Positions 7,069 to 62,146 of a stretch of 64,000 bases of DNA are shown in pieces (the stretch's first letter is position 1; every line of letters begins with the position of its first letter). The position numbers and the translations under genes were made by a program. The DNA comes from Candidatus Brockarchaeota archaeon (GTDB lineage Archaea > Thermoproteota > EX4484-205 > JAAOZO01). The stretch spans positions 16,743 through 80,742 of the forward strand of contig JAFNIV010000004.1 of NCBI GenBank assembly GCA_017601145.1, read 5' to 3'. Below the pieces are notes generated by a model that did not search any database, was not told where the DNA came from, and was given only the letters and a program-made list of their open reading frames with translations.

Positions 7069-7992
7069 TTATAACTTAGTTCTACTTGAAACTTCCTTTA
7101 AGTTCTTAAGAATAGTTGTAGCCAGCTCAATGCTTGTTTTTCTTAAACCACAATCTGGATGTACATAGGCGATCTTATTCGGCCCAACAGTAGAAAAAAC
7201 ATCCTTAATTATATTAATGGAGCTTTCAATAGAAGTTAGATCCTCTTGAGATAGAACATTAACTTTCATACACCCAACTCCGATTGTCTTTGAACTTATA
7301 CTTGACAGGTTCTTTGAGAGCACATCTATATTGCTAGAAGAACCAGCAAACTCTAAGCTAAGAACACTTGTATTTCTTATTTTACCTAAAGCTTTTAGCA
7401 CATTTGAATTTATTCTTCCACAAGCATGAATGCTTGTCATCTTTGGATCTAGACCTTCTGTTGCAATGTTCAAAGGTTCTTCTACTAAGTCTGGACTTAA
7501 GAATCCTGCACTAACTCCTGGCTCATCAATTTGAACTAATCCATCGTAGAATTGAATTTGTCTTGCAATTTTGTTTACAACGACTGCGACGTCATTATAT
7601 AACTCTTTATCTCTTAAACTTTTGTATGGGCCTAAGTTGTTTATTGCAGCAGAAAAACCAAGAGTTACTGGTCCAGTTATACCAACTTTTAACTTATTTT
7701 CGTATCCTTTTTCTTTAACATAACTTTTTGCTTCAAGGAAATCGACTACTTTAAAAGAAGTAGTAATTTCTTTTATAGGCTTAATTTTACCTGTTATGAA
7801 AATTTTTTCATTTGCCTTACTTAAACCATACATAGAATTTGACATATACGAGAGCATGTCGGCTCTTTGTTCTCCATCAGATATTATATCTATGCCTATA
7901 TTAACTTGTAAGTCAACTACTAATCTAATCGATTTTTTCAAGTTTTCATGAAGTCTTGGAAAGCTTCCAATTACGGTTGTAGTTAGAGACAT
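7069..7992 (-). CDS. metE: MetE-core (C-terminal-domain-only) cobalamin-independent methionine synthase family, Zn-dependent thiol methyltransferase
   Basis: Blocks VIGSFPR, SDGEQRADM, VQIDEPG, IHACG (H-x-C), LSLEFAG (E) and VHPDCGLRK (C). All four MetE-type zinc ligand positions appear to be present. Only 307 aa. Confidence 0.8.
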   Translation of the reverse strand: MSLTTTVIGSFPRLHENLKKSIRLVVDLQVNIGIDIISDGEQRADMLSYMSNSMYGLSKANEKIFITGKIKPIKEITTSFKVVDFLEAKSYVKEKGYENKLKVGITGPVTLGFSAAINNLGPYKSLRDKELYNDVAVVVNKIARQIQFYDGLVQIDEPGVSAGFLSPDLVEEPLNIATEGLDPKMTSIHACGRINSNVLKALGKIRNTSVLSLEFAGSSSNIDVLSKNLSSISSKTIGVGCMKVNVLSQEDLTSIESSINIIKDVFSTVGPNKIAYVHPDCGLRKTSIELATTILKNLKEVSSRTKL

Positions 7993-8296
7993 TGGTTTGT
8001 TCCTTTTTCGAATACTTTTAAATTTTTATTTTTAGAGTACCAGTCTAGGAATAAATGTTACATCAATCCTTAAGATAATAGTTCAGAAGCACTACAAAAA
8101 TTAAATACCTAAAAATCTTTATTTTTCTATATTACTCTAAATGCAGTTGGTTGTGTGACGATTACTAAGAGAAATATTAATCGCTTCTATTCTGAAAGTA
8201 CTTCTTGCAATGAAAAATAACGTAAAAATTAGTTTTATCATTAAAAGTGCTAAAGGCTTAAATATTCATCTCGTAAACACAAAGAGATAAATAAAG
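7993..8296. promoter_or_regulatory. divergent promoter region between the metE-like gene and mtaC
   Basis: 304-bp AT-rich spacer between divergent genes. A TATA-like TTAAATAT at 8258-8265 sits about 35 nt upstream of the mtaC ATG, which implies a very short leader. Confidence 0.3.
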
Positions 8297-8959
8297 ATGA
8301 GCAAGGAAAAGTATCTTGAAGCGATTAGAGATAGTATCGTAAACCTAGACTTTGATAAATCAAGAGAATACACTTTAAAGGCTTTAGAAGCAAATGTAAA
8401 ACCTCAAGAAATAATTTCAAAAAGCATAGCTGAAGGTATGGATATTGTGGGAAAGAAGTTTGAGTCAGGGGAATATTTTCTTTCTGAGCTAATTGTAGCT
8501 GGAGAAATAGGAAAAGAAATAACTAGTATTCTTGAACCTCATTTAAAGGGGAGCGAGATTAGTAGGGTTGGAAAGGTTGTTATTGGAACTGTAAGAGGGG
8601 ACTTACATGACATAGGAAAGAACATCGTTGCAATAATGCTTGAAGCTGCAGGATTTGAAGTTATCGACTTAGGAGCAGATGTTCCCCCTGAAAAATTTGT
8701 AGAAGCTGTGAAAAAAGAGAACCCAGATATAGTAGCAATGTCAGCCTTGTTAACGGTAACGATGGTTGAAATGAAGAACGTTATAGATGCGCTAAAGGAA
8801 GCTGGACTAAGAGAAAAAGTAAAAGTTATAATAGGAGGAGCACCAGTAACTGAAGAATTTGCAAGAAGCATAGGAGCAGACGGTTATGGAGCAGACGCAG
8901 TTCAAGGAGTAAGAATCTGCAAAGCATGGATGGAAGAAAAAAGTAAAACAAAAACCTGA
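8297..8959 (+). CDS. mtaC: methanol-type corrinoid protein (cobalamin-binding, MtaC-like)
   Basis: B12-binding signature DxHxxG (GDLHDIGKN), SxL (MSALLT) and GG (IIGGAP). It has an N-terminal helical cap domain and lies 11 nt upstream of the mtaB homolog. Confidence 0.9.
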   Translation: MSKEKYLEAIRDSIVNLDFDKSREYTLKALEANVKPQEIISKSIAEGMDIVGKKFESGEYFLSELIVAGEIGKEITSILEPHLKGSEISRVGKVVIGTVRGDLHDIGKNIVAIMLEAAGFEVIDLGADVPPEKFVEAVKKENPDIVAMSALLTVTMVEMKNVIDALKEAGLREKVKVIIGGAPVTEEFARSIGADGYGADAVQGVRICKAWMEEKSKTKT

Positions 8960-8970
8960 TGGAATGAGTT

Positions 8971-10314
8971 ATGGAGTTTAATAAAACAAGTTTAAGTTTG
9001 GAAGAAATAAAATTTGGATTTTCCAAGTTTCCACTTAAGTATGGCATTAACTTAGAAGTTGGGAATGGTAAAGTAATTCCTGAAATAAAGTACTTTCCAA
9101 GGGTAAAGGAAGACCTTAAGGAAGAGTATATAAACATAACAAAGGAAGTGCTAAATAGAGCAGTTGACCTTGGAATAAAAGATTTACAATTAGAAACAGA
9201 ACTAACTTACGTTGAAACAGGAAATCCAAAACTTGCAGGAGAGATAGTTAGGAGCCAAAGAGATATTATTGAAAAATATGCAAAAGAGTATAACATAAAC
9301 TTAGGACTTAGAGTAACAATAGCAGACATGAGAGATTTCAGAAAAGAAAAACATGATGAAGAAAGTTTTACAAAAATGCTAGAAACCTTTGAAGAAGTTT
9401 CTAAAAATGGAGCAGACGTTTTATCGATTGAATCTGAAGGAGGAAAAGAACTTTTCAACTACTCTATAATAAGACAAGACATTATAGGAATTGTAGTTTC
9501 TCTTGGGTTGTTATCAATACTTGACATGAAAAAATTGTGGAAAGAAATTGTAAAGATAGCAAGAAACAACAAAGTAATAGCAGGGGGAGATAGTGCTTGT
9601 GCTTTTGCAAACACTGCAATGAGACTAGCAGGCGGTATGAAGAACAACACTATACCTCATACTCTTGCAGCCGTAGTTAGAAGTATGTCCGCAAGTAGAA
9701 GCCTGATTGCTTACGAAGAAGGAGCCGTAGGTCCTGGAAAGGATTGCGCATATGAGAATGTAATAATCAAAGCCATAACAGGCTATCCAATGTCAATGGA
9801 AGGAAAAAGCTCAGCAGTAGCGCACTCGAGTCTTGTTGGCAATGTAGCTGCATCAGCCTGTGATCTTTGGTCAAATGAACAAGTTGAAAACATAAGACTT
9901 TTTGGGGGATATGGACCGGAAGTTTTTCTAGAGATCCTCTATTATGATACCAAGCTAATGAACGAAGCAATAAAAAATAAAAATCAAGATTGCTTAAAAA
10001 AAATTCTAGTAGAATCTGATAAGTACTTAGATCCACAAGCTTATGTTCTTTCTCCAGAAGTTGCTTTAGAAATTGGAAAAACAATAGTTAGTGAAAAAGA
10101 CACATTGTTGAGAACAATCTTTGCAGGAATTAAACTAGTGGAACTAATGACGAAAGAAGAAAGACTTAATCTTAACAAGAATGAGACAAGGTTCTTAAAG
10201 GTTATGAAAACTACGTTAGAAGAGATAAGCAAAGAACCTTATAAAAAAGTAGAACAAGCATTACCAACTTATGAGCAAAAAATAAGTGAGTATAGGCTGA
10301 AGGATTACTTCTGA
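8971..10314 (+). CDS. mtaB: methanol:corrinoid methyltransferase MtaB
   Basis: Collinear with methanogen MtaB as I remember it: FGFSKFPLKYG, LSIESEGGKELF, GGDSACAFANTAM, AYEEGAVGPGKDCAYENVIIKAITGYPMSMEGKSSAVAHS, DPQAYVLSPE. The Glu/Cys/Cys blocks that carry the Zn ligands in characterised MtaB are retained. Confidence 0.9.
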   Translation: MEFNKTSLSLEEIKFGFSKFPLKYGINLEVGNGKVIPEIKYFPRVKEDLKEEYINITKEVLNRAVDLGIKDLQLETELTYVETGNPKLAGEIVRSQRDIIEKYAKEYNINLGLRVTIADMRDFRKEKHDEESFTKMLETFEEVSKNGADVLSIESEGGKELFNYSIIRQDIIGIVVSLGLLSILDMKKLWKEIVKIARNNKVIAGGDSACAFANTAMRLAGGMKNNTIPHTLAAVVRSMSASRSLIAYEEGAVGPGKDCAYENVIIKAITGYPMSMEGKSSAVAHSSLVGNVAASACDLWSNEQVENIRLFGGYGPEVFLEILYYDTKLMNEAIKNKNQDCLKKILVESDKYLDPQAYVLSPEVALEIGKTIVSEKDTLLRTIFAGIKLVELMTKEERLNLNKNETRFLKVMKTTLEEISKEPYKKVEQALPTYEQKISEYRLKDYF

Positions 10315-11144
10315 TTTTGTTTTTCTTTTTCTAGTTCGGCATCAGCTTCCGCAAAGTCTCTTTTAACAAAAGGATTATCGCTTGCTATGGTCCTAGTTTT
10401 TCTTATATCGTTAGAATAGAAATCTCTCTGTTCTAGCGCCTTTAAAAACCTATTACTGAAATCCTCAATGTAGGAACCATAAATATGGTAAGAATCTGAA
10501 ATGTCTACATATTGTCCAACTACGACTTCTTTATGGATTTTCTTAGAAATCATTAAAGCAATTTCTTTCTGTAGCTCTGTAAGAGCAAACATGTTCATGA
10601 AAGCAGCCTTATAAGCATCTCTAGACCTCCAATGAGCATTCATATTCAACATTAATGTACCATTTTCTTCTGTACAACGAAGCCATATCCTTTGTAAACA
10701 TGGAGGGTCATCTGTTTTTGGATCTAACTTAGGATCCCATGTTATTGCTTGTGCTCTTCTAGTATAAGGAACTTTAGAAAGCTTATCTACAACATAATCT
10801 ACTTGATTTATGAATCCATCGCATGAAGGGTATTTAAACAGTCTTTGATGATAAGTATAGGTCCACTTACCACTTTTTGGATCTATCCAATGATCATGAA
10901 CTCCCTCTACAACTTCTCTTCTGTATTTCCATAAATCCTTAAAACTTGCTGGAATTGATAGGTGTATCCTTGGTTCTGAAAGGGGTTTAAAAACAACCAT
11001 TACCATTGTTGCATCTACACTTGGAGGGTCGTTAGGCTTATCGTATTCTGTTCTTATTCTAATGCCACTTTTCCAAAGCTCAACTAAAGATTTTTCCCAA
11101 GCTTCTGCTATGTTATTACCGCTAACTTTTATGACGGGAATCAT
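10305..11144 (-). CDS. thyA: thymidylate synthase (ThyA) family protein
   Basis: YTRRAQAITWDP...DPPCLQ (catalytic Cys block), HWRSRDAYKAAFMNMF and DSYHIYG parallel the ThyA RR / PPCH / RS.D / D.H.Y blocks. Its 3' end overlaps the mtaB 3' end by 10 nt (convergent). Confidence 0.7.
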   Translation of the reverse strand: MIPVIKVSGNNIAEAWEKSLVELWKSGIRIRTEYDKPNDPPSVDATMVMVVFKPLSEPRIHLSIPASFKDLWKYRREVVEGVHDHWIDPKSGKWTYTYHQRLFKYPSCDGFINQVDYVVDKLSKVPYTRRAQAITWDPKLDPKTDDPPCLQRIWLRCTEENGTLMLNMNAHWRSRDAYKAAFMNMFALTELQKEIALMISKKIHKEVVVGQYVDISDSYHIYGSYIEDFSNRFLKALEQRDFYSNDIRKTRTIASDNPFVKRDFAEADAELEKEKQNQK

Positions 11145-11209
11145 TGCTCCACGAAGAAAAACAAAAAGTAAGATAAAATTCGTTTGGTCTAAATAAGTTG
11201 AGTTTTTTA

Positions 11210-13108
11210 TTAAGAGTCATAATTTTTTTCTCCTTCTCTTAAAGATGAAATTGACTTAAGAGTTCTTTGAAATAGGGCTTCATCCTTATGAGGAATAAAC
11301 GTTGCGTTTATAAACTCTTGTCTAAACGAAGGTACTAAGTTTAGTTCGACTACCTTAATTTTCTTAGCAACTTCTATTGATTCTCTCCAAAGTTCTTTAG
11401 AAAGAAGTAAAGAACTAGCACCCATCCCAGAACCATTACCAATTTGTACAATTTTTTCTCTTTGAACTTCAGGTAAAAGCCCAATTATCATGGCATAAAA
11501 GGGGTCTATGTAGTTTCCAAATGCACCTGCAATAAACAGCTTCTTAACATCTTCTACTTTTGTTTTGCTTATTTTAGACAAAGTTATGAAAGCTGAAAGT
11601 ACAGCAGCCTTTGCAAGTTGTACTTTTCTAATATCTTCTTGAGTTATAACTATTTCTTTACCTGTTCCAGAGTTTTTTTCATCAACTAAGACAAATTGAA
11701 GTTCATTGTTTTCTTTTTTTACTCTGCTAGAGTTTTCTAGTAGCTTTCCAGATTTGTTTACTATGCCTCTAATTCGTAACCAAGCTAAAGCTTCAACAAT
11801 ACCAGAACCGCATATTCCAACTGGTTTTCTATTTCCTATGGTTTTAAAAAATACTTCGTTACCATCCTCACTTATAGTAACTGATTCTATAGCACCTTCC
11901 ATAGCACGCATACCGTGTCTTATGCTGTATCCTTCAAGAGCGGGACCAGCGGCACATGATGCTGCAAAGATTTCATTTAAGTTCTTGATTACAACTTCGC
12001 CATTTGTTCCAAGGTCAATTAAAGCAACTGGATCTTCATACTTAAAAAGCTCAGAAACTAAAATATCTGCAACAACATCACCGCCAATATAAGCACTCAC
12101 GCAAGGTAATGTTCTAACGTATCCTGAAGGATTTATTTCTACCTTTAAGTCTCTTGCCTTAACTTTAACTTGTGAAGTAAAAGGAGGAATATAAGGAGAT
12201 CTAGAAGAATAGAAGCTATTGTTTCCTAAGAGAAATGCTGTCATAACAGTATTCCCAGAACAAACGACATCATAGATTTTAGACGTATCAACATTTGTTT
12301 CTTTTGCTAGCTCTTTTATAATTTTGTTAATTGTAGAAATTATTGCCCCTTGAATATTCTTCAAGTTTTCGTAGCTTCGACTTGCGTATTCAATTCTACT
12401 TATTACGTCTTCACCAAATTTTATTTGTTCGTTGAAGGAAGATTTAATAGATAGCAATTCTCCAGTCAATAGGTCATATAAGTATCCAACAACGGTTGTT
12501 GTTCCAATATCAAAAGAAACACCATACAAACTAAAATTGTCCGAGTTAGGGACAACATCTAGTAATTCATCATCAAACAATATAGCACTAACATTAAAAT
12601 TGGAGTTCCAAATTACTTTTGAAATTTTTTCCAAGATAAGTGAGTCAAAGGTATTAGTATTTAGCTCAGCTAAAACCCTTTCAAGATCAGCTTTCTGATC
12701 TTCTAAACTTGGCTTAGACAATAATATAGATTTTCTTGTTGTTGATGGGCTTAAGTTGATTTGAACCTTCTTTCCAAGTGTTAGTATTTTTATGTTTTTC
12801 GTTTCAATGGTTTCACTTAGTTCGATAACAGCATCAGAAAGTAAGTTAGCCTGACATGCTAATCTAATGTCTAACCCAAGAGCTTTTTGCCATCTTTTTT
12901 CTTGTAAAGTTGGTTCAGAAAGAGACCCGCTGACTATTCTTATAGCACACTTTCCACATATACCTTTACCACCACAAACGCTCGCAACAGAGATGCCACT
13001 TCTTAGAAGAGCTTCAAGAATTGTTTCTTCAGGCTTTACAATGACTGAAGTGCCATTTGGTAAAATTCTAAGAGCATAGAGTTTGTATGAATTTTTGTCT
13101 ATGTCCAT
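11210..13108 (-). CDS. corrinoid reductive activase, RACo/COG3894 type (N-terminal 2Fe-2S ferredoxin + ASKHA ATPase)
   Basis: N-terminal plant-type ferredoxin Cys pattern CGGKGICGKC...ACQ. ASKHA phosphate motifs FDIGTTTVVG and IDLGTNGEV. 632 aa. Adjacent to mtaCB. Confidence 0.85.
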   Translation of the reverse strand: MDIDKNSYKLYALRILPNGTSVIVKPEETILEALLRSGISVASVCGGKGICGKCAIRIVSGSLSEPTLQEKRWQKALGLDIRLACQANLLSDAVIELSETIETKNIKILTLGKKVQINLSPSTTRKSILLSKPSLEDQKADLERVLAELNTNTFDSLILEKISKVIWNSNFNVSAILFDDELLDVVPNSDNFSLYGVSFDIGTTTVVGYLYDLLTGELLSIKSSFNEQIKFGEDVISRIEYASRSYENLKNIQGAIISTINKIIKELAKETNVDTSKIYDVVCSGNTVMTAFLLGNNSFYSSRSPYIPPFTSQVKVKARDLKVEINPSGYVRTLPCVSAYIGGDVVADILVSELFKYEDPVALIDLGTNGEVVIKNLNEIFAASCAAGPALEGYSIRHGMRAMEGAIESVTISEDGNEVFFKTIGNRKPVGICGSGIVEALAWLRIRGIVNKSGKLLENSSRVKKENNELQFVLVDEKNSGTGKEIVITQEDIRKVQLAKAAVLSAFITLSKISKTKVEDVKKLFIAGAFGNYIDPFYAMIIGLLPEVQREKIVQIGNGSGMGASSLLLSKELWRESIEVAKKIKVVELNLVPSFRQEFINATFIPHKDEALFQRTLKSISSLREGEKNYDS

Positions 13109-13438
13109 GTGGCACGCAAGGGAAAACTGCGTAGGACGAATATTTAAACAATACTTACCTTAAATCTTAATATTATTTTTAGTTTTTGAAAAATGGTTTA
13201 AGGAGCCAAATTTAGAAGTTCTTTAAATATTTTTGAATTTCTGCAATTACAACCTTATGAGTTGCTTTTTTATATTTTATGAACAATAGAATTGATTTTT
13301 GTCGTTATTTAAAATTGAGTTTAGTTAAAAGATGCAACTAAAATATAAGACATTAGAAATTACGTTTTATGAACTTAAGTAAAAATTCGTTAATCTAAAA
13401 AGCTTTTATTTTCTCCACAAAGTATATGTTAACAAAGG
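13109..13438. promoter_or_regulatory. divergent promoter region between the activase and the UroD-family gene
   Basis: 330-bp AT-rich spacer. The direct 10-mer TTTTATGAAC occurs at 13275-13284 and 13365-13374. A short GC hairpin (ACGCA-N9-TGCGT, 13114-13132) sits 5 nt upstream of the activase start. Confidence 0.25.
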
Positions 13439-14518
13439 ATGCTGAACTCAAGAGAAAGGTTTCTAACAGCCTTAGCTAGAAAACAACCAGATAGAGTTCC
13501 AATTTGGGAGTTAATAATAAATGAACCAGTAATAAGCAGTTTACTTCCTGGAAAAAGTTATGCTGATTTTGTAGAATGGATAGATTTAGATGGAATTACC
13601 ACTGGAGAAGACCAAATTTTTAGAAAGGAAGGAGAATACATAGTAGATGAATGGGGAATAAAGTGGAAGGTCAGTACTCCTGGAATTAACTACCCAGCAG
13701 GAGGCCCAATAAGAGAGCCTAAAGACTTAGAAAGCTATAAGCCTCCAGATCCAGATGCAGAACATAGACTAAGAACTCTAGAAGCCTATGTTGATAGGTT
13801 TAAAGGAAGAAAAGCAATAGTTTTTCTAGGGCATGAAACATTTGAATTTTCTCATTACCTGTTAGGTGGCATGTCAAACCTTTTCTATTATTACTATAAG
13901 GATCCTAAATTTGTTCATAGGTTGAGTGAGATTATTTCAGAGTACAAATGCAGAGTGATGCAAAGAGCTGTAAAGTTAGGAGCAGACGTTCTTCTAACTG
14001 GAGATGACTATGCAAACAGAAAGGCTCCTTTGATGTCTCCAAAGCAATTTAAGGAATTTATACTTCCCTATTTAAGAAAAGCTGTAGAAACATCAAAGAA
14101 ACTTGGAGTTCCTTTCATAAAGCATACAGATGGTAACCTTTGGCCAATAATAGATATGATTGTAGAAGCCGGAATTGATGCTCTAGACCCAATAGAACCA
14201 ATTGCAAGAATGGACATAGGAGAAGTAAAGAAAAAGTATGGAGATAAGATAGCTGTAGTTGGAAATGTGGATTGTTCCTATGTTTTAACATTAGGAAATG
14301 AAAAAGAAGTTGAAGATGCAGTAAAAGAAACGATTGCAAAAGCTTCTCCAGGCGGTGGGCATATAATAGCTTCTAGTAACAGCATACATCCTGCTGTTAA
14401 ACCTTCAAACTATTTACTTATGACAAAGTTAGTAAAAGAATATGGAGTTTATCCAATCGATGAAAAATTAGTTGAAGAATATAGGGAAAGAAAATACATA
14501 GCGAAGTACCTAGATTAG
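13439..14518 (+). CDS. uroporphyrinogen-decarboxylase (UroD/MtaA/MtbA) family protein lacking the MT2 zinc Cys ligands
   Basis: UroD-fold length and blocks (PDRVPIWE, LTGDDYA, IKHTDGN, DALDPIEP, IASSNSIHP). The positions that are H-x-C and a late C in CoM methyltransferases read H-T-D and S-S-N-S here. Confidence 0.7.
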   Translation: MLNSRERFLTALARKQPDRVPIWELIINEPVISSLLPGKSYADFVEWIDLDGITTGEDQIFRKEGEYIVDEWGIKWKVSTPGINYPAGGPIREPKDLESYKPPDPDAEHRLRTLEAYVDRFKGRKAIVFLGHETFEFSHYLLGGMSNLFYYYYKDPKFVHRLSEIISEYKCRVMQRAVKLGADVLLTGDDYANRKAPLMSPKQFKEFILPYLRKAVETSKKLGVPFIKHTDGNLWPIIDMIVEAGIDALDPIEPIARMDIGEVKKKYGDKIAVVGNVDCSYVLTLGNEKEVEDAVKETIAKASPGGGHIIASSNSIHPAVKPSNYLLMTKLVKEYGVYPIDEKLVEEYRERKYIAKYLD

Positions 14519-22136: not shown

Positions 22137-23993
22137 TTAAAATATAGGTCTCTTAGACAACAAAACAGGAAGTGGTAGTGGTTTATAGGGCTTATCTTTT
22201 GTTTCTTCTAGTATATCACTAGCTAGTTCCTCTATGCTTAATTCAGCTATTTTTCCAGTTAACCGGTTTCTCACAGACAGTTTGCCAGATTTTAACTCCC
22301 TTTCTCCAACCACAACTATGTACCTTATCCATTCTCTTTCAGCTTCTCTTATTTTTTTCTGGACAGTTTCGTCTCTGTCATCTACGTCTGCTCTTATCCT
22401 TTTTTCGCTTAAAGTTTCAGCAAACTTTAAGGTTGTGTCTATAAACTCTTTTGAGATCGGTATGAATCTGACTTGAGTAGGAGAAAGCCAAAGAGGAAGC
22501 TCAGGAACTTTACCCTTATCTTGATCTGCATAAGCTTTTTCTAGTAGTGCATAGATAACACGTTCTATTGCGCCACTTGGTGACATATGAAGGATTATTG
22601 GATTTTTCTTTGTTCCATCTTCATCTACAAAAGTAATTCCAAACCTTACTCCATTTTCAACATCGATTTGATCTGTAGAGAGAGCTGAGGCTTTTCCTAA
22701 GTTGTCAATAAAGTTTAGCTCATACTTTAAGACAAAGTAGAAGAACCTTTCTTCCCACATTTCGACAAGGACAGGCTTCCCAAATTCCCTTACCAAAGAA
22801 ACAATAAACTCCTTGTTGTTTTCAAAGAAATCCTTAGTAAAACGTATAGCCATTTCGACGTTTTCTTTCCCAACTCCAAGTTCTTCTATAACATTAAGTA
22901 TGATTCTAAATCTAGCTTTCATTTCTTCTTTTGCTTGATTCATATCCTTTACGAAAGCATGACAATCTGGCATAGTAAAGGCTCTTAGTCTCCTTAGCCC
23001 TACAACTTCTCCACTCTTCTCTCTTCTAAAGGAGTACTTTGTTAGTTCGTAAAGTTTTAGTGGCAAGTTTCTGTAAGAGATTGTTGCCTGAGAAGCCATC
23101 AAAAATTGACCAAAACACGCAGCAAACCTTAAGAAAAATTCTTTATCACCAGACTTAACGATATATTGCCTAGCTGGGAATCTACTCAAATAAGATTCTA
23201 AAGCAGGATGATTTATATTATACATTATTGGAGTTTCAACTTCTAACGCACCATATTCAGAAACTTTCAAGGAAACATATTCTTCTATTAATGATTTGAT
23301 GAGTTTTCCCTTTGGATACCACCTCATGTTTCCTGCATCAGAAGCTTCTTCATAACTTGCAATTGAATGTCTTTGCATAAGTTGAACATGAGGTGGAATT
23401 TGAGTAACAACCCTTGATTTAGAAACTTCATATTGCATGAACTTCTTTAAGTTATCATGAGAAGAAAAATTGAATTGTTCTATTGGTATTAAAGCTCCAT
23501 TTTCATCCATTATGTACCAATATGATTTTAGTTTTCTTTCTGCAACAACTGCAGTAGTAACAGGACCTTCCTCATCGTACATACCTTTAATAGTTTTAAA
23601 CTGTTCTGCAAGAGGATGTCCTTTTATTGCTATTGTGAATTTCTTTGTCCATCCAAACGGTGCAAGTGTGACGTCAACGCCAGAGTTTTTTAGTTCTTCA
23701 GATAAAGTTTCAAGAATTATCTTAGCTTGAGAAGGACTTGCTAGCTCGTTGCTTAAATGCGAATAAGGATAAATTAGAACCCTACTAACTTTTAGATCAT
23801 CAAGAGACTTTTTGATGCTTTCTACTACACTTCTGATAGAACTTTGAGAATCGTCTTTTTCTACCGAAACAAGTAGAACAACTATGTCTTTGAAGCTTTT
23901 TGGAGATTTGTCCACAAGCTCCTCTGCGTTTTCAGTCTCCTTTTTTATTGGTTCATACTCAAAACTGTCGGCATGAAGCTGGAGAAGTCGCAA
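22137..23993 (-). CDS. thrS: threonyl-tRNA synthetase, archaeal type with N-terminal editing domain
   Basis: 618 aa. Archaeal DTD-like editing N-domain (MRLLQLHADSFEYEP), class II core (FRRE...GLRRLRAFTMPD, motif 3 region) and C-terminal anticodon-binding domain. Confidence 0.9.
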   Translation of the reverse strand: MRLLQLHADSFEYEPIKKETENAEELVDKSPKSFKDIVVLLVSVEKDDSQSSIRSVVESIKKSLDDLKVSRVLIYPYSHLSNELASPSQAKIILETLSEELKNSGVDVTLAPFGWTKKFTIAIKGHPLAEQFKTIKGMYDEEGPVTTAVVAERKLKSYWYIMDENGALIPIEQFNFSSHDNLKKFMQYEVSKSRVVTQIPPHVQLMQRHSIASYEEASDAGNMRWYPKGKLIKSLIEEYVSLKVSEYGALEVETPIMYNINHPALESYLSRFPARQYIVKSGDKEFFLRFAACFGQFLMASQATISYRNLPLKLYELTKYSFRREKSGEVVGLRRLRAFTMPDCHAFVKDMNQAKEEMKARFRIILNVIEELGVGKENVEMAIRFTKDFFENNKEFIVSLVREFGKPVLVEMWEERFFYFVLKYELNFIDNLGKASALSTDQIDVENGVRFGITFVDEDGTKKNPIILHMSPSGAIERVIYALLEKAYADQDKGKVPELPLWLSPTQVRFIPISKEFIDTTLKFAETLSEKRIRADVDDRDETVQKKIREAEREWIRYIVVVGERELKSGKLSVRNRLTGKIAELSIEELASDILEETKDKPYKPLPLPVLLSKRPIF

Positions 23994-24141
23994 TTTAGCT
24001 CTCCATAACTTGTAAAAAATTACTTAAAAGTCTTTTTATTAAACTTAAATAAAGCGAAAATTTAAGATAAACTGGACAATATAAATAAAGAAATGTTATA
24101 AGAATAAAAAACCAAAAAACCTTATAGTTTTCTCCTTTTTC

Positions 24142-24387
24142 TTAAATTTCTTCTTCTAAAGGCTCGTTATCAAGACCAATTATTTTTGCATTGGGATATT
24201 CTTTCATGAGCTCTTTTCTTACTTCTTCTTTGTTTACATTACCCCTAAGAATAACTTTAACTATTCTCCTTCCATGGGCGTCTGTTGTTACAAATACAGA
24301 GTACCCTTTAGCGTTTTTGGAGGTAGATTCAAGGTCTAAAAAGTCATCCACGTCTTCGTAAATTTCTCTGAGCTTCTTTCTTTTCAT
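24142..24387 (-). CDS. hypothetical small protein (81 aa)
   Basis: Clean ORF with charged ends, directly upstream of thrS on the same strand. I recognise no family. Confidence 0.4.
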   Translation of the reverse strand: MKRKKLREIYEDVDDFLDLESTSKNAKGYSVFVTTDAHGRRIVKVILRGNVNKEEVRKELMKEYPNAKIIGLDNEPLEEEI

Positions 24388-24437
24388 TAGAAGCTCATTT
24401 TTAGAATGACGATAGAAGTTTATAAACTTTTGTTTTA

Positions 24438-24536
24438 TTAAAGAACTGCTATCTCGTAATGACTTATTTTAAATAATAAAACTACTGGTACAAGGGCTAT
24501 TAGAAGCCTTATCCAGCTAATAGCAATTCTAACCAT
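24438..24536 (-). CDS. candidate 32-aa single-TM micro-protein
   Basis: Hand-translated as MVRIAISWIRLLIALVPVVLLFKISHYEIAVL*. It is preceded by GGAGGT, but the spacing to the ATG is only 2-3 nt. Confidence 0.25.
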   Translation of the reverse strand: MVRIAISWIRLLIALVPVVLLFKISHYEIAVL

Positions 24537-24656
24537 ATACCTCCAAAGATAGAATCTGATTTCTTATGGAGTTTTATAGTTGGTTAAGGAACTTGCCTTT
24601 AGAGAGCCTTCACCATTTGAACATTTCTGATTTTCTTTATCAATATTCTCTAGAAG

Positions 24657-24682
24657 TTTCACAAATAAAAGTATTTGTGAAA
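24657..24682. repeat. perfect 11-bp inverted repeat (TTTCACAAATA-aaag-TATTTGTGAAA)
   Basis: Read directly from the sequence. It sits in a 729-bp non-coding gap and is followed by T-rich sequence. Confidence 0.7.
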
Positions 24683-25116
24683 GTCTTATTATACCAAGTT
24701 CAACTTTCAATTTTTTTTATGTTTCTAACTTAATTGAAGCCTGATCTTTTATCAAATTCATGTCTCTTTCGAAATCCTTTTTCATCTTTTAGAAAGTACT
24801 TCCTTGGAGTAATATCCTTGGCCAAGTAAACATTATGTCGTTCGTCTGGATTTAATGAAATATTTTTACTTCAAGGCTGTAACGAACTCTGAAAAACACG
24901 CAAAGAAGTCTTAAATGATTTTAAATAAAGTTTTTAACGTTAGTTATCAAACCTCTCCATTAAAGTAAGTTCCAACATAATCTAAGTTGAAGAATAATCA
25001 AGACTATAATCTAATGGCAGAAAAGATATCAAAACCATCTAAACATGCAAGGTTACACAAAAATGGAACCGTTAAAAATTGATATAATGTTCAAAATTTA
25101 AGAAAAAGTTTATAAA

Positions 25117-25713
25117 ATGAATGAAAATGAAACTACTAAAATGAAAACTAAATGGAATGAGGTTATAAGAAAAACATACGAAAAATCTAGAAAACTTGGA
25201 GTTCCTAGCATTGACCTTGAGGATGGATATGTATTATTTTCTCTGGCTTATTTAACAGCTCTAAACTTAAGAAAACTTAATGCAATAGATGCTGGTGCTG
25301 GAGTTGGATTCTCAACAATTTGGATAGCAAAAGCTCTAGAGGATTCTGAAGTTGATGGAAAGATCTACGCAATTGAAGAAGATTCAAGAAGGTTTGATGG
25401 CCTTAGAGAGTTAGTTCTAAACTACAAGTTTCAAGATAAAGTTATTCCAATTGAAGGAAATGCATTAGAGCTTATAGAAGGAATAAAAGAAGAAATTAAC
25501 TTTATATTTATTGACATTGATAAACATCTTTACCTTGATCTTTTTAAACTAGTTAAAGATAAAATTCAAGTTGGTGGATTAGTTCTTGCTCACAATGTAA
25601 ACCATAGGTGGGGAACGATTGAAGAGTTTATAGAAGAGGCTTCAAAAGATGGATGGAAAACAACAATTGCGCCTACTCCTGAAGGGATCTCAATAAGTTT
25701 TAAAGTATCATGA
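25117..25713 (+). CDS. class I SAM-dependent O-methyltransferase (family 3 / COMT-like)
   Basis: SAM motif I IDAGAGVGFSTIWIA and an acidic end of beta-2 (YAIEED). 198 aa. Confidence 0.75.
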   Translation: MNENETTKMKTKWNEVIRKTYEKSRKLGVPSIDLEDGYVLFSLAYLTALNLRKLNAIDAGAGVGFSTIWIAKALEDSEVDGKIYAIEEDSRRFDGLRELVLNYKFQDKVIPIEGNALELIEGIKEEINFIFIDIDKHLYLDLFKLVKDKIQVGGLVLAHNVNHRWGTIEEFIEEASKDGWKTTIAPTPEGISISFKVS

Positions 25714-25748
25714 TAGTAGAACTTAAATTTTGAAATGAAGTTAAGTTG

Positions 25749-28607
25749 CTAACTCCAATAGGGCTTAGTTTGAATATACTTGATTTTTGCTTCTAAGAGC
25801 TCTTTTATTAAATCATAATCGCTGTAATGCATTTTTGATAAGATTCTAAAAGCTGTTTGTGGCCCTATACCGTAAACAGAAAGAGCTATCACTCCATTTT
25901 TACCATATGAGTTAATTATATCTGCAGTCTTTCTTATATCTGAAAGCATTTTTAACTCATCCTCTTCTAGATTTTCTCCATTCAGTCTTTTTCTTATTAT
26001 TTCTTCAATGTAGCCTTTATTTTTTGGTATTATTCCAAGTAAAGTTGAACCACATTTAAAACATCTAGGTTTTTGAGGAATATTAGCTACCATAACTTGT
26101 CCTTGCCTTGAACCACACTCCATGCATATTAATTCAACTTTGGAGCTTAGTATTGAATTTTTTAACCTCTCAATCGAATCTTCTTTAATTCCTTCAGGGG
26201 CCATTACTTCTGGCAATTCTACATACTTGTTGAGGATGTGATAAGAGAGTGGAGTTGGACTTTCTTTAGAAATGTACTTTATTAATTTAATTTTCCCTTT
26301 TGATATTTCAGAAATAATTTGCTTGGTAGTTCTTAAGTCAAGTTTTTCTTGAAGGACTTCTCTCATAGTTTCATCGTATATTGGAGTATTCTTACATACA
26401 CTATAAAGACTTAGTAACTTTGACTCACTTAAGGTGAGACCTCTCTCAATCATACCAAACCTTTCAGCAATAAACTTCATATAATAGCCAAATGGAAATC
26501 TTTCTTTTATCCTAAGCTTAAAGTCCTTCTCCGCATCTCTTGAATTGATTGGCAGAAGTTTATTAACAACGGAATCAAAATTAGAAGGAGTTAACTCAAA
26601 CGGAAGTTCTACCAATATTCTATAGCCATCAACCCACCAGTTTTTAACTAAGCCATCTCTAGACAGTCTTTGTTCAATTATATAACCTAGCGTTCTATTA
26701 ACTGATTCACCAAAGCAACAGTTAACCACTAGATACTTATCAAACCCTTCTATGAGTATTTGCTCATCAGACGGTATTGGGGCTCCAAGATTAATTTGTT
26801 CCTGTAACTCTTTTACAATGTTATATGCAGTGTAAAGATCTACCTGAAACTCATTACAAAGCCAAGCAATAGCTTGTTCTTGCCCTTTTTCCTCTAATAT
26901 TTTCGAGATTTCTCTTCTAAGCTTACCAACTTCCTTTGCTAGCTCGTAAGGTACTGGAAGTATCTCGCCATCCCAACCAGGCAGAGCTGCTGTTGGATCA
27001 TCAACTGGAGTCACGTATACGTATCCATCTTCCGAAATTTCTTCAATGTTCCAAACTAAACCTCTACAAATAAAGTGAAGACCTTCTTTGGCTCTGAGTG
27101 TAACAAACTCTTCGCCTACTACACCTATTGTCCTATTGGTTGTTAAATCAACTATAGGATACCTTTTTTCATCCGGTATCATTGAAAGATTGGAAAAATA
27201 ATAAGATCTTGACTTTTCAGTTAACAACAACTCATCACTACGTATTTTAACTAACCCTAACCTAGAAAGAAAATCTAAAACCTCAAAAAATTTCCTCTTA
27301 TCAAGCTTAGAGAAACAATACGATCTCGAAATAACCTGAAAAGCATGAGAAATCTTTATTCTTCTATGATCCATTGTAAGACCTACAATTTGGTGGGCGA
27401 GCACGTCAAGGGCATTTTCGTGAATTTTTGTAGGTTCGATAAGTCCGAACTTAGCTCTCCTTAAAACGGCAATAGCTTCCAAGGCATCATCTGTGAAAGC
27501 AGTTACTATTACCCCTCTTGAAGTTAATCCAAGTTTATGACCAGACCTACCAACCCTTTGAATGAATGGTTTAACTTGACGTGGTGAAAGATATTGTACT
27601 ACAAGGTCAACACTTCCTATATCTATTCCAAGTTCAAGAGTTGATGTACAAACTATGGCCTTCAGATTACCTTTCTTAAAATCTTCCTCTATTTTTTCTC
27701 TTTCCTCCCTTGATAGAGAACTATGATGAATACCAATACTTGAGCTAAGATAACTAAGCTTTAAAGCTAAGAGTTCTGCAACCTGTCTACTGTTAACAAA
27801 AATTAAAGTAGAGGTATGAGTTTCCGAAAGTTTTTTTATTGTCTCTATTCTAGCAGCAGCCTCAACTGAAGTGAAAAGAGTTGAAGAAAGCTCAAGAGTC
27901 TTCTTACTCGGCCGAGGCCATATAACTTCATAAGAGAAGCCTTTTGGTATTGGAACGTAAATAATTTCAATTGACCTTTTTGCACCAACCAACATCTTAG
28001 CAACTTTCTCAGGGTTTCCAATTGTTGCAGACAAGCCAATTCTTTGGAACTCATGAGAGGTTACTTCTCTGAGTCTTTCTAAAGCTATACTAAGCTGAGT
28101 CCCCCTTTTACTTTCAGCTATCTCATGAAACTCATCAACCACTACATACTTGACACTTCTTAGATTCTCTTGCATCCTTTTTCCAGGAAGTATAGATTGG
28201 AGAGTTTCGGGTGTTGTTATTAAAATATCTGGTGGCTTTAGGGCTTGTTTTCTCCTTAAAGAAGGAGGAGTATCGCCATGCCTAACGTCTACTGTTAAGT
28301 TAAGCATAGTACATACTTTTAAGAATCTTCTTAGCATATCTCTATTTAGGGCTCTAAGTGGAGTTATGTAAATCAAGGAAATACCTTTTCTGTTCTTAAT
28401 ATTAACTAGTTTACTTAGTAGCGGTAAAAGAACTGCCTCGGTTTTTCCACTTCCAGTAGGAGCTACCAATAGAATATTTTTCCCGGACATAACAGAGGGA
28501 ATAGCTTTTTCTTGCGGTTCAGTTAACTTTTCTATCCCTATTTGTCTCAGTATATTTTTAATTTGTACTGGAAGTAAATCTAAAGAATCTTGAGTATGAC
28601 CAACCAT
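25749..28607 (-). CDS. lhr: Lhr-type large SF2 DEAD/DEAH helicase
   Basis: Motif I APTGSGKTEA, motif II VDEFHE, motif VI QRVGRSGH. Long C-terminal Lhr-associated region with a zinc ribbon (CMECGS...CFKCGS). 952 aa. Confidence 0.85.
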   Translation of the reverse strand: MVGHTQDSLDLLPVQIKNILRQIGIEKLTEPQEKAIPSVMSGKNILLVAPTGSGKTEAVLLPLLSKLVNIKNRKGISLIYITPLRALNRDMLRRFLKVCTMLNLTVDVRHGDTPPSLRRKQALKPPDILITTPETLQSILPGKRMQENLRSVKYVVVDEFHEIAESKRGTQLSIALERLREVTSHEFQRIGLSATIGNPEKVAKMLVGAKRSIEIIYVPIPKGFSYEVIWPRPSKKTLELSSTLFTSVEAAARIETIKKLSETHTSTLIFVNSRQVAELLALKLSYLSSSIGIHHSSLSREEREKIEEDFKKGNLKAIVCTSTLELGIDIGSVDLVVQYLSPRQVKPFIQRVGRSGHKLGLTSRGVIVTAFTDDALEAIAVLRRAKFGLIEPTKIHENALDVLAHQIVGLTMDHRRIKISHAFQVISRSYCFSKLDKRKFFEVLDFLSRLGLVKIRSDELLLTEKSRSYYFSNLSMIPDEKRYPIVDLTTNRTIGVVGEEFVTLRAKEGLHFICRGLVWNIEEISEDGYVYVTPVDDPTAALPGWDGEILPVPYELAKEVGKLRREISKILEEKGQEQAIAWLCNEFQVDLYTAYNIVKELQEQINLGAPIPSDEQILIEGFDKYLVVNCCFGESVNRTLGYIIEQRLSRDGLVKNWWVDGYRILVELPFELTPSNFDSVVNKLLPINSRDAEKDFKLRIKERFPFGYYMKFIAERFGMIERGLTLSESKLLSLYSVCKNTPIYDETMREVLQEKLDLRTTKQIISEISKGKIKLIKYISKESPTPLSYHILNKYVELPEVMAPEGIKEDSIERLKNSILSSKVELICMECGSRQGQVMVANIPQKPRCFKCGSTLLGIIPKNKGYIEEIIRKRLNGENLEEDELKMLSDIRKTADIINSYGKNGVIALSVYGIGPQTAFRILSKMHYSDYDLIKELLEAKIKYIQTKPYWS

Positions 28608-28847
28608 TTTGCTTCACTTTTTTATTAATTTAGATAACGAACACAGAGATTAAATATCTTTTTGCTTTTTCTCCTTTTTCGCATCCTAAGTGTGTTTTAA
28701 AACTCAGAAAACATGAACCAACTCTCTTTATGGAAGAAGCTTTCTACTTCACTGTGAAGGCTTGCTCTTCAACTACAGCAATAGCTTAAACGAAAAGTAG
28801 AGGCTTCTCATCACGTGTAACTCAGGTTTCTCCATAGCACCTGAAAG

Positions 28848-29090
28848 ATTAGGAGTAAAAGATATGGGCATTTATCAATTCATTGGCCAAATTTATTAGT
28901 TCTAACAAACAAGACCATGGAAACTTTAGAAAAGCTGTTAAATTCTGGAAAGATAAGAGCAATTGGAGTTAGCAACTTTAACTTAAGAAGACTCTCTAGC
29001 GCTAGAAAGGACTTAGAAAAAAGATATAACTAACAACCAAGTTTTCATACTAACATTGCATTTTGAGAACTTGTTACAGAAATTTAGTTA
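28848..29090 (+). pseudogene. aldo-keto reductase gene remnant
   Basis: Hand translation gives stop-interrupted fragments: APERLGVKDMGIYQFIGQIY*, then METLEKLLNSGKIRAIGVSNFNLRRL..., then ...NNQVFILT.... These match the AKR blocks SL.RLG.DYIDLYQIH / L..GKIRAIGVSNF / NQVE. Confidence 0.6.
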
Positions 29091-29741: not shown

Positions 29742-29782
29742 ACAAAAAAATTCTTTCTAAGAAATATAAACTTATTTAATTC

Positions 29783-30898: not shown

Positions 30899-30984
30899 TT
30901 CTCACATCACAGAAAGTTTAGTATTGCAGGAGCTGCTACTCTTATAGCTTCTTTCACCATCTAGTTGTTGCTTCCTCCAATACT

Positions 30985-62113: not shown

Positions 62114-62146
62114 GTTTTAAACCAAAGTTTTTAAGAAAGGGTTTTA

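Follow-up and report, generated by a model that had tools for sequence, protein, structure and literature searches.

The genes that surround mtaCB in a hot-spring archaeon of the Brockarchaeota suggest that methyl groups drawn from methanol may be passed to methionine, and perhaps to thymidylate. In the explanation that we consider best, which has five steps and to which we assign a probability of about one half, methanol methylates the corrinoid protein MtaC, from which a core MetE transfers the methyl group to homocysteine, giving methionine. Methanol would then serve at least as an anabolic source of methyl and C1 units in a fermentative, non-methanogenic archaeon.

The locus itself is not new. 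The 64-kb window (the whole stretch of DNA analysed) corresponds to scaffold NODE_4_length_86970 of the Brockarchaeota MAG DRTY-1.18, a window position being the scaffold position minus 16,742. The gene coordinates in sheet DRTY-1.18 of Supplementary Data 9 of De Anda et al. 2021 (Nat Commun 12:2404; PMC8065059), where all six genes are tabulated, agree with the window at this offset, and the identical NCBI proteins MBO3801084/86 are labelled 'Candidatus Brockarchaeota archaeon'. These authors already reported the locus as methanol use without methane formation in hot-spring Brockarchaeota, proposed non-methanogenic methylotrophy and likewise inferred methanol use without Mcr. The original prediction of MtaBC methylotrophy is partly supported; Brockarchaeota, which it had invoked as a mere analogy, are the source of the window itself. 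The 2021 study discussed only MtaB (gene 26 of the scaffold) and MtaC (gene 25), and called the second methyltransferase lacking or "undescribed"; core MetE, ThyA, RACo and the UroD-like protein appear uninterpreted in its supplementary operon table, RACo as an 'uncharacterized metal-binding protein'. To this the present analysis adds a comparison of about 90 related loci (a set of 89).

Table 1. Features of the mtaCB locus (window positions; GA, gathering score).
Feature	Position	Strand	Length	Basis
Core (C-terminal-half only) MetE-family zinc methyltransferase	7069-7992	−	307 aa	Pfam Meth_synt_2, 85 bits, above GA
Divergent intergenic region, core metE / mtaC, AT-rich	7993-8296		304 bp	Presumed promoters, from gene orientation only
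MtaC-type corrinoid (cobamide-binding) protein, methyl carrier	8297-8959	+	220 aa	Pfam B12-binding_2 and B12-binding
MtaB, zinc-dependent methanol:corrinoid methyltransferase (MT1)	8971-10314	+	447 aa	Pfam MtaB
Divergent ThyA-family thymidylate synthase	10305-11144	−	279 aa	Pfam Thymidylat_synt, 38 bits (GA 24)
RACo-type ATP-dependent reductive activase of corrinoid proteins	11210-13108	−	632 aa	Pfam Fer2, RACo_linker, Raco_middle and RACo_C_ter
Divergent intergenic region, RACo / UroD-like	13109-13438		330 bp	Presumed promoters, from gene orientation
UroD-superfamily (MtaA-fold) protein without both cysteine zinc ligands	13439-14518	+	359 aa	Pfam URO-D, 132 bits, above GA

An ORF check and Pfam searches recovered all six genes with the families and motifs first ascribed to them. 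MtaC scores 60 bits (B12-binding_2) and 121 bits (B12-binding), both above the gathering score, and carries D102-x-H104-x-x-G, SAL at 149 and GG at 180. Eleven nucleotides (8960-8970) separate its stop from the start of mtaB. MtaB reaches 526 bits with its Pfam model (above gathering; residues 9-446 on 460 positions), and 495 with NCBIfam MtaB_Meth, whose cut-off of 720 is not reached. Its predicted collinearity with methanogen MtaB is borne out by an end-to-end alignment with the Methanosarcina barkeri enzyme (PDB 2I2X_A; residues 9-446, 383 bits), in which E154, C210 and C259 fall on chain positions E164, C220 and C269, which we take to be the zinc ligands. The three residues are invariant across 26 TACK homologues. 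Loss of the zinc ligands or of the MtaC histidine had been set in advance as grounds for giving up the original prediction; all of them, H104 included, are retained.

The activase scores above GA for all four of its domains, and its 2Fe-2S cysteines are C45, C51, C54 and C85. As a first step, judging from its family, RACo would bring inactive Co(II)-MtaC to the Co(I) state by reduction, drawing on its 2Fe-2S cluster and on ATP. In the second, methanol would be polarised on the Glu/Cys/Cys zinc site of MtaB and its methyl group taken up by Co(I)-MtaC to give CH3-Co(III)-MtaC; the ligands and the collinearity are observed, and methanol is the presumed substrate.

The set resembles the Methanosarcina MtaABC system with its RamA-type activase in the tandem genes for the MtaB zinc enzyme and MtaC, in a UroD-fold partner and in an ATP-dependent reductive activase. 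It differs in that the activase is of the bacterial RACo type, with an N-terminal 2Fe-2S domain, and in that MtaC is closest to corrinoid proteins of the acetogen Moorella (1Y80, 195 bits) and of Desulfitobacterium (4JGI, 177 bits), M. barkeri MtaC (2I2X_B) reaching only 97 bits. Moreover, the UroD-fold partner lacks both cysteine zinc ligands, so that CoM-type thiol activation is unlikely, and Mcr is reported absent from the Brockarchaeota MAGs. An ordinary methyl-reducing methanogen that has its mcr, hdr and CoM genes beyond the window, or whose binning missed them, is a most improbable source of the locus. MAGs are incomplete, and a deep-branching mcr-positive MAG related to Thaumarchaeota comes from the same type of hot spring (PMC6783470). 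However, mcr, which the original prediction had asked to be sought elsewhere in the genome, is reported absent from 15 Brockarchaeota MAGs and from their unbinned metagenome contigs, as are the H4MPT methyl branch and CODH/ACS from the MAGs (PMC8065059). The locus has no zinc-competent MtaA, and the surroundings are devoted to sugar catabolism. The rest of the 64 kb had been described as free of methanogenesis genes; accordingly, no such family was found among the window ORFs left unannotated, nor in the published COG table for the whole 87-kb scaffold. The proposed methyl transfer to an acceptor other than CoM in a non-methanogen, which is also the published reading, is consistent with all tests made. 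The predicted L13e gene is present (61892-62113, − strand), and the window gave no tRNA, rRNA or Rfam matches.

Across the related loci, the recurrent TACK module consists of MtaC-MtaB, RACo and a UroD-family protein; ThyA and core MetE accompany it only in certain lineages, repeatedly and in two different gene orders. The RACo gene adjoins mtaB or mtaC in most loci with sufficient flank. Core MetE is adjacent to mtaC in only two sublineages, divergently in the window and L002, and co-directionally, as ThyA-MetE-MtaC-MtaB, in L007, L008 and L025 (MAG JZZ.4); in other lineages ThyA and core MetE stand alone. Subsets of the predicted six-gene island are syntenic in relatives, but it is not one conserved unit, the full set being seen only in the DRTY-1.18 species.

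Core MetE retains the zinc residues H189, C191, E214 and C281 and the homocysteine-binding residues S10, E41 and D156 (residue list from PMC7857596). Its best NCBIfam model is PRK00957 'methionine synthase' (184 bits, below the cut-off of 258), and it is the sole K00549 match for DRTY-1.18 among the matches listed in the published Kofam table. It belongs to a small clade of about 30 clusters confined to Thermoproteota. In vitro, two core synthases that have been characterised, MesA and MesB, take the methyl group from methylcobalamin and not from methyl-folate (PMC7857596). Like MesA, MesB and MesC, the window protein consists of one MetE C-terminal barrel that bears the zinc and homocysteine residues, and its expected methyl donor, like theirs and that of MetH, is a methylated corrinoid protein. 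Unlike MesA-C, whose predicted donors are MtrA or CoFeSP in hosts with methanogenesis or the Wood-Ljungdahl pathway, it scores below the NCBIfam cut-offs and adjoins an MtaC presumably loaded from methanol in a host reported to lack both pathways; at the position of E. coli Glu484 it has Glu where MesA and MesC have Gln. It is a candidate exit enzyme, which would transfer methyl groups from the methyl-corrinoid to homocysteine. In the third step, with no CoM-type MtaA at hand, the methyl group would most likely exit through this enzyme, converting homocysteine to methionine, and MtaB, MtaC, RACo and core MetE, which mirror the four modules of MetH, would form its split, methanol-fed functional analogue.

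A homologue with 34% identity in Methanomethylicia lies in a tight operon (L097-L099), directly 3' of an MtaC-type corrinoid protein and followed by MtrH, which shows that the core MetE family pairs with such proteins; methyl loading there would be by the MtrH-like protein from methyl-pterin, whereas in the window it would be by MtaB from methanol. A Bathyarchaeia homologue abuts an S-adenosylhomocysteine hydrolase gene. Nevertheless, orthologues without mtaCB stand alone in L094 and L095 (58-64% identity) and L096 (44%), and in L014, whose MtaB is 85% identical, the slot 5' of mtaC is held by a UroD-type gene, so the adjacency could reflect lineage-specific drift. Also counting against the methionine route, it would be physiologically odd for methionine synthesis to depend on environmental methanol, and comparison of the two divergent intergenic regions gave no common motif beyond chance 9-10-mers.

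In the UroD-like protein, alignment with MtaA (4AY7) places H229 on the MtaA histidine, D231 on the HICG cysteine (H229-T-D231-G in place of H-x-C-G) and N314 on the PGCGIAP cysteine. The description of a 'ligand-less UroD' proved apt as regards both cysteines, the histidine being kept, and a role as MtaA is ruled out; MtaA and CmuA models give 60-78 bits, far under their cut-offs. Of the 89 loci, 36 have UroD-family genes in the vicinity of mtaCB, including UroD-MtaC-MtaB operons, and orthologues of the window protein (59-63% identity) occur there in L046, L053/54 and L088. The window gene runs divergently from that of RACo, a layout repeated in L003-L006, L017, L019, L020 and L028. The position is conserved even where its occupant is only a remote UroD-like protein of 371 aa (L009/10, L032, L039, L041 and L065), entered as COG0407 in the published table (De Anda et al. 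2021). The protein is a candidate second methyltransferase, probably acting on a second substrate that is not a thiol. In a fourth and weaker step, it would act on the same corrinoid protein, either as an exit to a non-thiol carrier (e.g., a pterin) or as an entry for another methyl donor.

The former option coincides with the model favoured by De Anda et al. 2021, possible though doubtful in our estimation, in which MtaC passes its methyl group to tetrahydrofolate via an "undescribed" MT2; at this locus the Cys-less UroD-like protein is the most plausible such enzyme. Oxidation or assimilation by the H4F methyl branch and the reductive glycine pathway would follow. On this view, core MetE and ThyA would be housekeeping genes, their proximity incidental. 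The UroD-family partner adjoins mtaCB far more widely than core MetE does, a non-thiol acceptor, for instance a pterin, would be in keeping with the loss of thiol-activating cysteines, homologues of ThyA and core MetE occupy housekeeping contexts elsewhere, and inteins in ThyA homologues mark an essential enzyme of DNA metabolism. However, pterin methylation by a UroD-family enzyme is not known, the known corrinoid:pterin methyltransferases being of MtrH or MeTr type (PMC8630106), and the matches listed include no mtrH for DRTY-1.18 while other Brockarchaeota have one. GlyA is missing from all four published MAGs of the DRTY-1.18 species, for which the published text gives no FolD; nor do that text and the KO matches listed hold a split-MetE/MTHFR folate cluster. 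The DRTY-1.18 MAG is about 88% complete, so a further methionine synthase, or GlyA, may have escaped detection. The tetrahydrofolate route also leaves the recurrence of ThyA and MetE adjacency in two gene orders unexplained. In JZZ.4 and JZ-1.89, MTHFR, split MetE, GlyA and ThyX form a folate cluster of their own, so that in these genomes a methionine and a thymidylate synthase adjoin a C1-supplying system twice, a parallel in favour of the methionine route.

Alternatively, the UroD-like protein may be an entry enzyme (MT1), such as a methoxylated-aromatic O-demethylase like MtoB or MtvB, sharing MtaC and RACo with MtaB. This assignment, which we regard as unlikely, would provide the locus with two methyl donors and a single exit, through core MetE, and fits alongside the methionine route. 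UroD members related to MtaA and CmuA act as MT1 O-demethylases in Methermicoccus and acetogens (PMC8630106), several UroD paralogues surround mtaCB in L053/L054, resembling multi-substrate islands, and the host is rich in plant-polymer glycosidases. The likeness to characterised O-demethylases is nevertheless marginal, the PDB match to Acetobacterium CdmB having E = 0.0013, and the published table places a UroD-family gene three genes from mttB on a Brockarchaeota scaffold, an arrangement that a shared exit enzyme fits better. In the MtvABC, MtoABCD and type 1 Mlp clusters (Kountz & Balskus 2023), too, one or more UroD-superfamily methyltransferases accompany a corrinoid protein and an activase (RACo/RACE), and a recognisable pterin methyltransferase is often missing. 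They differ in having no MtaB, and their UroD members, O-demethylases or MtaA-like proteins proposed for methyl-sulfur/methyl-selenide metabolism, are only distantly related to the window protein.

The thyA gene is convergent with mtaB, their 3' ends overlapping by 10 nt. Its product carries the PPC149 nucleophile motif, R129R130, R173-S-R-D176 and N184, and scores 127 bits with TIGR03283 (methanogen-type ThyA), below the cut-off of 174.55. In the fifth step of the methionine route, ThyA would be a genuine thymidylate synthase, placed at mtaCB as the other major user of one-carbon units. To our knowledge, UniProt gives the cosubstrate of methanogen-type ThyA as unknown. It is quite unlikely, but conceivable, that ThyA takes its C1 unit from a corrinoid protein, in a cobamide-dependent, folate-independent reaction by which MtaCB would feed methionine and dTMP directly. 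The gene adjoins mtaB in 16 of the 89 loci, in two arrangements, there being better conserved (70-89%) than MtaB itself, and this adjacency is limited to clades that share at least 58% MtaB identity with the window. Against this, the family has thousands of members, bacterial ones included, in ordinary DNA and folate contexts (e.g., adjoining HPPK); in L011/L012 thyA lies away from mtaB on the same 1.4-Mb contig; and pathway-level linkage alone could explain the clustering. The best 150 representatives of the ThyA homologues include no fusion with MtrA. However, the DRTY-1.18 genome encodes a second ThyA (NODE_5_68419_19, also in DRTY7.37) with a putative N-terminal MtrA-like corrinoid-binding region (Kofam thyA 116.9 bits and mtrA 148 bits, and an arCOG03221 alignment over residues 11-185, in the published matches listed), a fusion that, speculatively, hints at corrinoid-linked thymidylate synthesis.

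The central claim of the original prediction, that the locus demethylates methanol in an archaeon without methanogenesis, is the interpretation published by De Anda et al. in 2021 for the metagenome-assembled genome (MAG) DRTY-1.18 (PMC8065059). The six ORFs lie at the positions first assigned to them, each above the Pfam gathering score for the family named, and the published DRTY-1.18 gene coordinates equal the window coordinates plus 16,742, a match that extends along the scaffold. Thus, the window is itself a Brockarchaeota genome and not just comparable to one; the lineage had been cited as an analogy, while its genes are those of Supplementary Data 9 of that study. A methanol methyltransferase in a non-methanogenic archaeon is already known, and since it was published for the same genome, the headline claim adds nothing alone. 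MtaB and MtaC apart, the six-gene neighborhood appears only in the supplementary operon table, without interpretation (PMC8065059). For the exact sequences, NCBI nr gives the names "methanol--corrinoid methyltransferase" (MtaB, MBO3801086.1) and "hypothetical protein" (core MetE, MBO3801084.1).

Genes of the methyltransferase locus in the window and in the published listing for DRTY-1.18 (scaffold NODE_4_length_86970; Supplementary Data 9, PMC8065059)
Protein	Published gene	Published label	Window position	Scaffold position	Strand
Core MetE	_00024	COG0620	7069-7992	23811-24734	−
MtaC	_00025	COG5012	8297-8959	25039-25701	+
MtaB	_00026	MtaB	8971-10314	25713-27056	+
ThyA	_00027	COG0207	10305-11144	27047-27886	−
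RACo	_00028	COG3894	11210-13108	27952-29850	−
UroD-like	_00029	COG0407	13439-14518	30181-31260	+

De Anda et al. proposed a "non-methanogenic anaerobic methylotrophy" for Brockarchaeota, reporting that mcr is absent from the MAGs and from the unbinned contigs of the source metagenomes, that neither the H4MPT methyl branch nor CODH/ACS is present, and that MtaA is lacking, with "another undescribed protein" having to carry the methyl group, presumably to tetrahydrofolate (PMC8065059). In agreement with what was first noted for the window, its unannotated ORFs match no methanogenesis family, and no mcrABG, hdr, or CoM/CoB biosynthesis genes were found in the 64 kb or on the whole 87-kb scaffold. 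On the strength of the literature, the absence of methanogenesis is very likely. The L13e protein that had been remarked on is present as well: L13e (73 aa), a radical-SAM activase, and the anaerobic ribonucleotide reductase NrdD (cut by the window end) lie at 61892-63981 (−), a set in keeping with a strict anaerobe of the TACK group. Scans of the 64 kb for tRNA, rRNA, and Rfam families returned no matches, and the two divergent intergenic regions (core metE/mtaC and RACo/UroD-like) share no regulatory motif, just chance AT-rich 9-10-mers.

De Anda et al. did not settle which enzyme removes the methyl group from MtaC. The locus and its relatives offer two candidates: one is core MetE, whose zinc and homocysteine sites are intact, and the other a protein of the MtaA fold without the Cys ligands. 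In the literature searched, we found no description of an MtaC–MetE or corrinoid–ThyA link, nor any interpretation of this partner set (core MetE, UroD-like protein, ThyA, RACo); the additions made here are proposals from sequence comparison.

The loading side resembles the MtaABC/RamA system of methanogens. MtaB matches Pfam PF12176 with 526 bits over residues 9-446 and aligns over the same residues with M. barkeri MtaB (2I2X_A, 383 bits). Its E154, C210, and C259 align with Glu164, Cys220, and Cys269 of the 2I2X structure, which we take to be the zinc ligands, and the equivalent positions are unchanged in all 26 TACK homologues; the comparison with Methanosarcina MtaB that had been called for thus finds the three ligand positions intact. 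With 495.5 bits against a cut-off of 720 for the NCBIfam model MtaB_Meth, the protein is placed by sequence in a separate TACK clade, outside the methanogen equivalog. MtaC (220 aa) consists of a B12-binding_2 cap and a B12-binding Rossmann domain and retains, as had been noted, the corrinoid-binding signature: DxHxxG with D102 and H104, SxL as S149-A-L, and GG from G180. Its stop codon lies 11 nt before the mtaB start, and a corrinoid-protein gene pairs with mtaB in every related locus where one was detected. In RACo, all four Pfam domains (N-terminal 2Fe-2S ferredoxin, linker, middle, and C-terminal ASKHA) exceed their gathering thresholds and the 2Fe-2S cysteines are C45, C51, C54, and C85; the AcsV exception model gives 468, below its cut-off of 800. 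RACo would reduce Co(II)-MtaC at the expense of ATP, and MtaB would then move the methyl group of methanol onto Co(I)-MtaC. This assignment of the three proteins is highly probable, with methanol as the predicted substrate.

Conservation was followed by tblastn of the window proteins (E ≤ 1e-6, query coverage at least 40%) in 89 related loci, of which 80 are metagenomic, 6 were retrieved through MtaB homologues, and 3 belong to species-representative genomes. All locus counts are lower bounds because many contigs are short: UroD-family genes occur in at least 36 of the 89 loci, and ThyA stands beside mtaB in at least 16 of the 89, all of them with MtaB of ≥58% identity. Of the loci with sufficient flank, most have RACo next to mtaB or mtaC. 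UroD-MtaC-MtaB operons occur among L030-L054, and window-type UroD orthologues (59-63% identity) in L046, L053/54, and L088. In the window, L002-L006, L014-L020, and L028, ThyA follows mtaB in convergent orientation, while the loci of the MAG JZZ.4 type (L007/L008/L025) have a co-directional ThyA-coreMetE-MtaC-MtaB arrangement in the order GH127 – ThyA – core MetE – MtaC – MtaB – RACo. Adjacency of core MetE is, among the loci compared, confined to L002, the JZZ.4 type, and the species of the window; L014 (MtaB 85% identity) has a UroD-type gene in that slot. Since ThyA and core MetE are not tied to mtaCB, the recurrent module is MtaC-MtaB with RACo and a UroD-fold protein. Of the six-gene neighborhood whose conservation was to be checked, this part recurs; the other two genes, for ThyA and core MetE, were added in particular lineages only, yet their adjacency has outlived a rearrangement.

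For the exit side of the window locus, the most plausible counterpart is a core methionine synthase. Core MetE (307 aa) is the catalytic half alone, with a single Meth_synt_2 match at 16-302 and without the N-terminal folate-binding half. Judged by the residue list for MetE and the Mes families (PMC7857596), the zinc ligands H189, C191, E214, and C281 (E. coli H641, C643, E665, and C726) and the homocysteine-binding S10, E41, and D156 (E. coli S433, E484, and D599) are all kept. The methyl donor of characterized core synthases is methylcobalamin, not methyl-folate (PMC7857596). The protein nonetheless does not fit the definitions of MesA, MesB, and MesC, either by score or by host pathway: the PRK00957 model gives 183.9 bits against a cut-off of 258, and the hosts of those families are methanogens with MtrA or carry a Wood–Ljungdahl CoFeSP, while Brockarchaeota are reported without Mcr and CODH/ACS. 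In the published tables, an MtrA-like domain is listed for DRTY-1.18 only as a ThyA fusion.

A methyl-corrinoid donor for core MetE is supported by the adjacency of mtaC and by an operon around a homologue (34% identity) in Methanomethylicia (L097:5363-7754, identical in L098 and L099), which tightly joins a corrinoid protein (210 aa), core MetE (293 aa), and MtrH (290 aa). This operon looks like a three-part methionine synthase with a homocysteine barrel of the MetE type, not the MetH type, and with MtrH, not MtaB, as the putative loader. In a Bathyarchaeia locus (L100:6001-8187, GCA_038852005.1), a homologue of 39% identity is convergent with and overlaps the gene for S-adenosylhomocysteine hydrolase, a neighbor that supports a methionine-cycle role of the core MetE family. 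Core MetE is also the only metE-type match for DRTY-1.18 among the Kofam matches listed (PMC8065059). Core MetE is the best-founded exit because of its retained residues, the use of methylcobalamin by its relatives, the corrinoid-protein operon, the S-adenosylhomocysteine hydrolase, and its standing as the sole listed metE-type match. We put the probability that it is the exit of the methyl group at about 0.5, with the use of methyl-corrinoid as a prediction. Core MetE would pass the methyl group of CH3-MtaC to homocysteine, giving methionine, and MtaB, MtaC, RACo, and core MetE would correspond to the four modules of MetH, methanol replacing methyl-folate. If so, the methanol that plant methyl esters and methoxy groups release would supply methyl groups for biosynthesis, in place of energy or in addition to it, and the reading of "methylotrophy" in Brockarchaeota MAGs in carbon-cycle models would change.

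Core MetE was also considered as an obligate neighbor of MtaC and rejected in that role, as the homologues in L094, L095, and L096 (44-64% identity) stand alone. In L094:4829-11470 and L095:4232-10476, the order is GH127 – epimerase – core MetE – FGGY kinase and resembles the JZZ.4-type locus minus the corrinoid genes and ThyA, which suggests that the mtaCB block was gained or lost there.

The second candidate, the UroD-like protein, has the TIM-barrel UroD fold (Pfam URO-D, 132 bits). Aligned with M. mazei MtaA (4AY7), it keeps H229, and the Cys of HICG is replaced by D231 and that of PGCGIAP by N314, so that the term "ligand-less" first applied to it holds in the MtaA sense. MtaA-type models score far below their cut-offs (TIGR01463, 76 bits against 235; MtaA_Meth, 60 bits against 400), and without the defining His-x-Cys...Cys zinc site the sequence falls outside the MtaA family. 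Because both Cys ligands are lost, a CoM-type MtaA is discarded as the exit enzyme. H-[TS]-D-G in place of H-x-C-G is found in most UroD-family neighbors in the TACK loci. The protein may instead move the methyl group to a non-thiol acceptor, and such an exit is supported by the published table (PMC8065059), where mttB and a UroD-family gene are three genes apart on one Brockarchaeota scaffold; we give the UroD-like protein as exit enzyme somewhat less than an even chance. Alternatively, it may act at the other end and, like MtoB, be the entry enzyme for methoxylated compounds.

In other Brockarchaeota, a 371-aa protein without a Pfam call (L009:8300-9415, L010:8096-9211, GCA_017601395.1), divergent from the RACo gene, aligns its H-L-D-G with the H-T-D-G of the window protein (pairwise E = 1e-4 over the H-x-D-G region; URO-D, 14 bits) and is by this measure a remote relative in the UroD superfamily; the published table labels it COG0407 (PMC8065059). 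On the 1.4-1.5 Mb metagenome contigs of L053 and L054 (1-9300 in each), four UroD-family paralogues, among them one H-x-C-G, one H-T-D-G, and one 63% orthologue of the window type, are found in the 10 kb upstream of mtaC-mtaB, making these loci multi-methyltransferase islands.

In other Brockarchaeota, strong mtrH KO matches of 326-350 bits are given for GD2_1, JZ-2.136, DRTY-6.80, and QZM_A2/A3, whose mtaCB clusters are without ThyA and core MetE; none is given for DRTY-1.18 among the matches listed (Supplementary Data 6, PMC8065059). In the lineages of these MAGs, the part of corrinoid:pterin methyltransferase could fall to the MtrH-like proteins.

The ThyA protein scores weakly, yet significantly, against its Pfam family (38.2 bits; gathering threshold 24.3) and carries C149 in PPC, R129-R130, R173, D176, and N184. 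The methanogen-type model TIGR03283 gives 126.8 bits, below the cut-off of 174.55, and ThyA and CMP hydroxymethylase structures in the PDB give about 22 bits each. More than 7,700 close homologues exist, including some in bacteria, where their neighbors are DNA and folate genes; homologues of about 61% identity occur in unrelated or housekeeping settings, even with mtaB on the same 1.4-Mb contig. Inteins (Hint or LAGLIDADG domains) interrupt the representative proteins P0372, P0386, P0402, and P0487 and begin near the region of the catalytic Cys, at about residue 150-180. Given the family size, bacterial members, and inteins, the window ThyA is best regarded as an ordinary essential thymidylate synthase; for the family size, the housekeeping contexts, and the inteins, a dedicated MtaB partner was rejected as a general rule.

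A second ThyA of the same genome bears on the corrinoid link, on our assumption that arCOG03221 is MtrA-like. In the published tables, this protein (NODE_5_length_68419 gene 19) has K00560 thyA at 116.9 and K00577 mtrA at 148, both above threshold, its residues 11-185 align with an M. barkeri arCOG03221 protein, and DRTY7.37 NODE_2172_length_3743 gene 4 has the same thyA and mtrA annotation (PMC8065059). Taken at face value, these three published annotation lines look like a corrinoid-binding domain fused to thymidylate synthase. Among the best 150 representatives of the window ThyA family, no MtrA fusion was found, the long matches being inteins and one N-terminal RNase H-like domain (P0380). 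If the fusion is real, it and the ThyA–mtaB adjacency are two independent ThyA–corrinoid associations in one genome. Direct use of methyl-corrinoid by ThyA is chemically conceivable, and we consider it improbable. A long shot, too, is the wider reading in which a methyl-corrinoid protein, not folate, is the direct C1 donor for both core MetE and ThyA in this lineage: core MetE would use CH3-MtaC for methionine synthesis, and the mtaB-adjacent ThyA and the MtrA-fused paralogue would both make dTMP from corrinoid-bound C1. If true, this would amount to a methanol-fed, folate-independent C1 anabolism with a cobamide-dependent thymidylate synthase. The double link of adjacency and putative fusion is a clue to where divergent archaeal thymidylate synthases obtain their C1 unit.

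The published genome data agree with core MetE as the exit: none of the four MAGs of the window's species has GlyA, and JZZ.4 and JZ-1.89 carry a separate cluster of MTHFR, split MetE, GlyA, and ThyX (PMC8065059). In these two MAGs, methionine synthase and thymidylate synthase adjoin a C1 supply twice, once folate-based and once corrinoid-based. The JZZ.4-type loci (L007:13310-15603, L008, and L025) further hold two PurP-type genes (DUF1246/DUF1297) directly beside the RACo gene, presumably encoding formate-dependent, folate-independent FAICAR synthetases.
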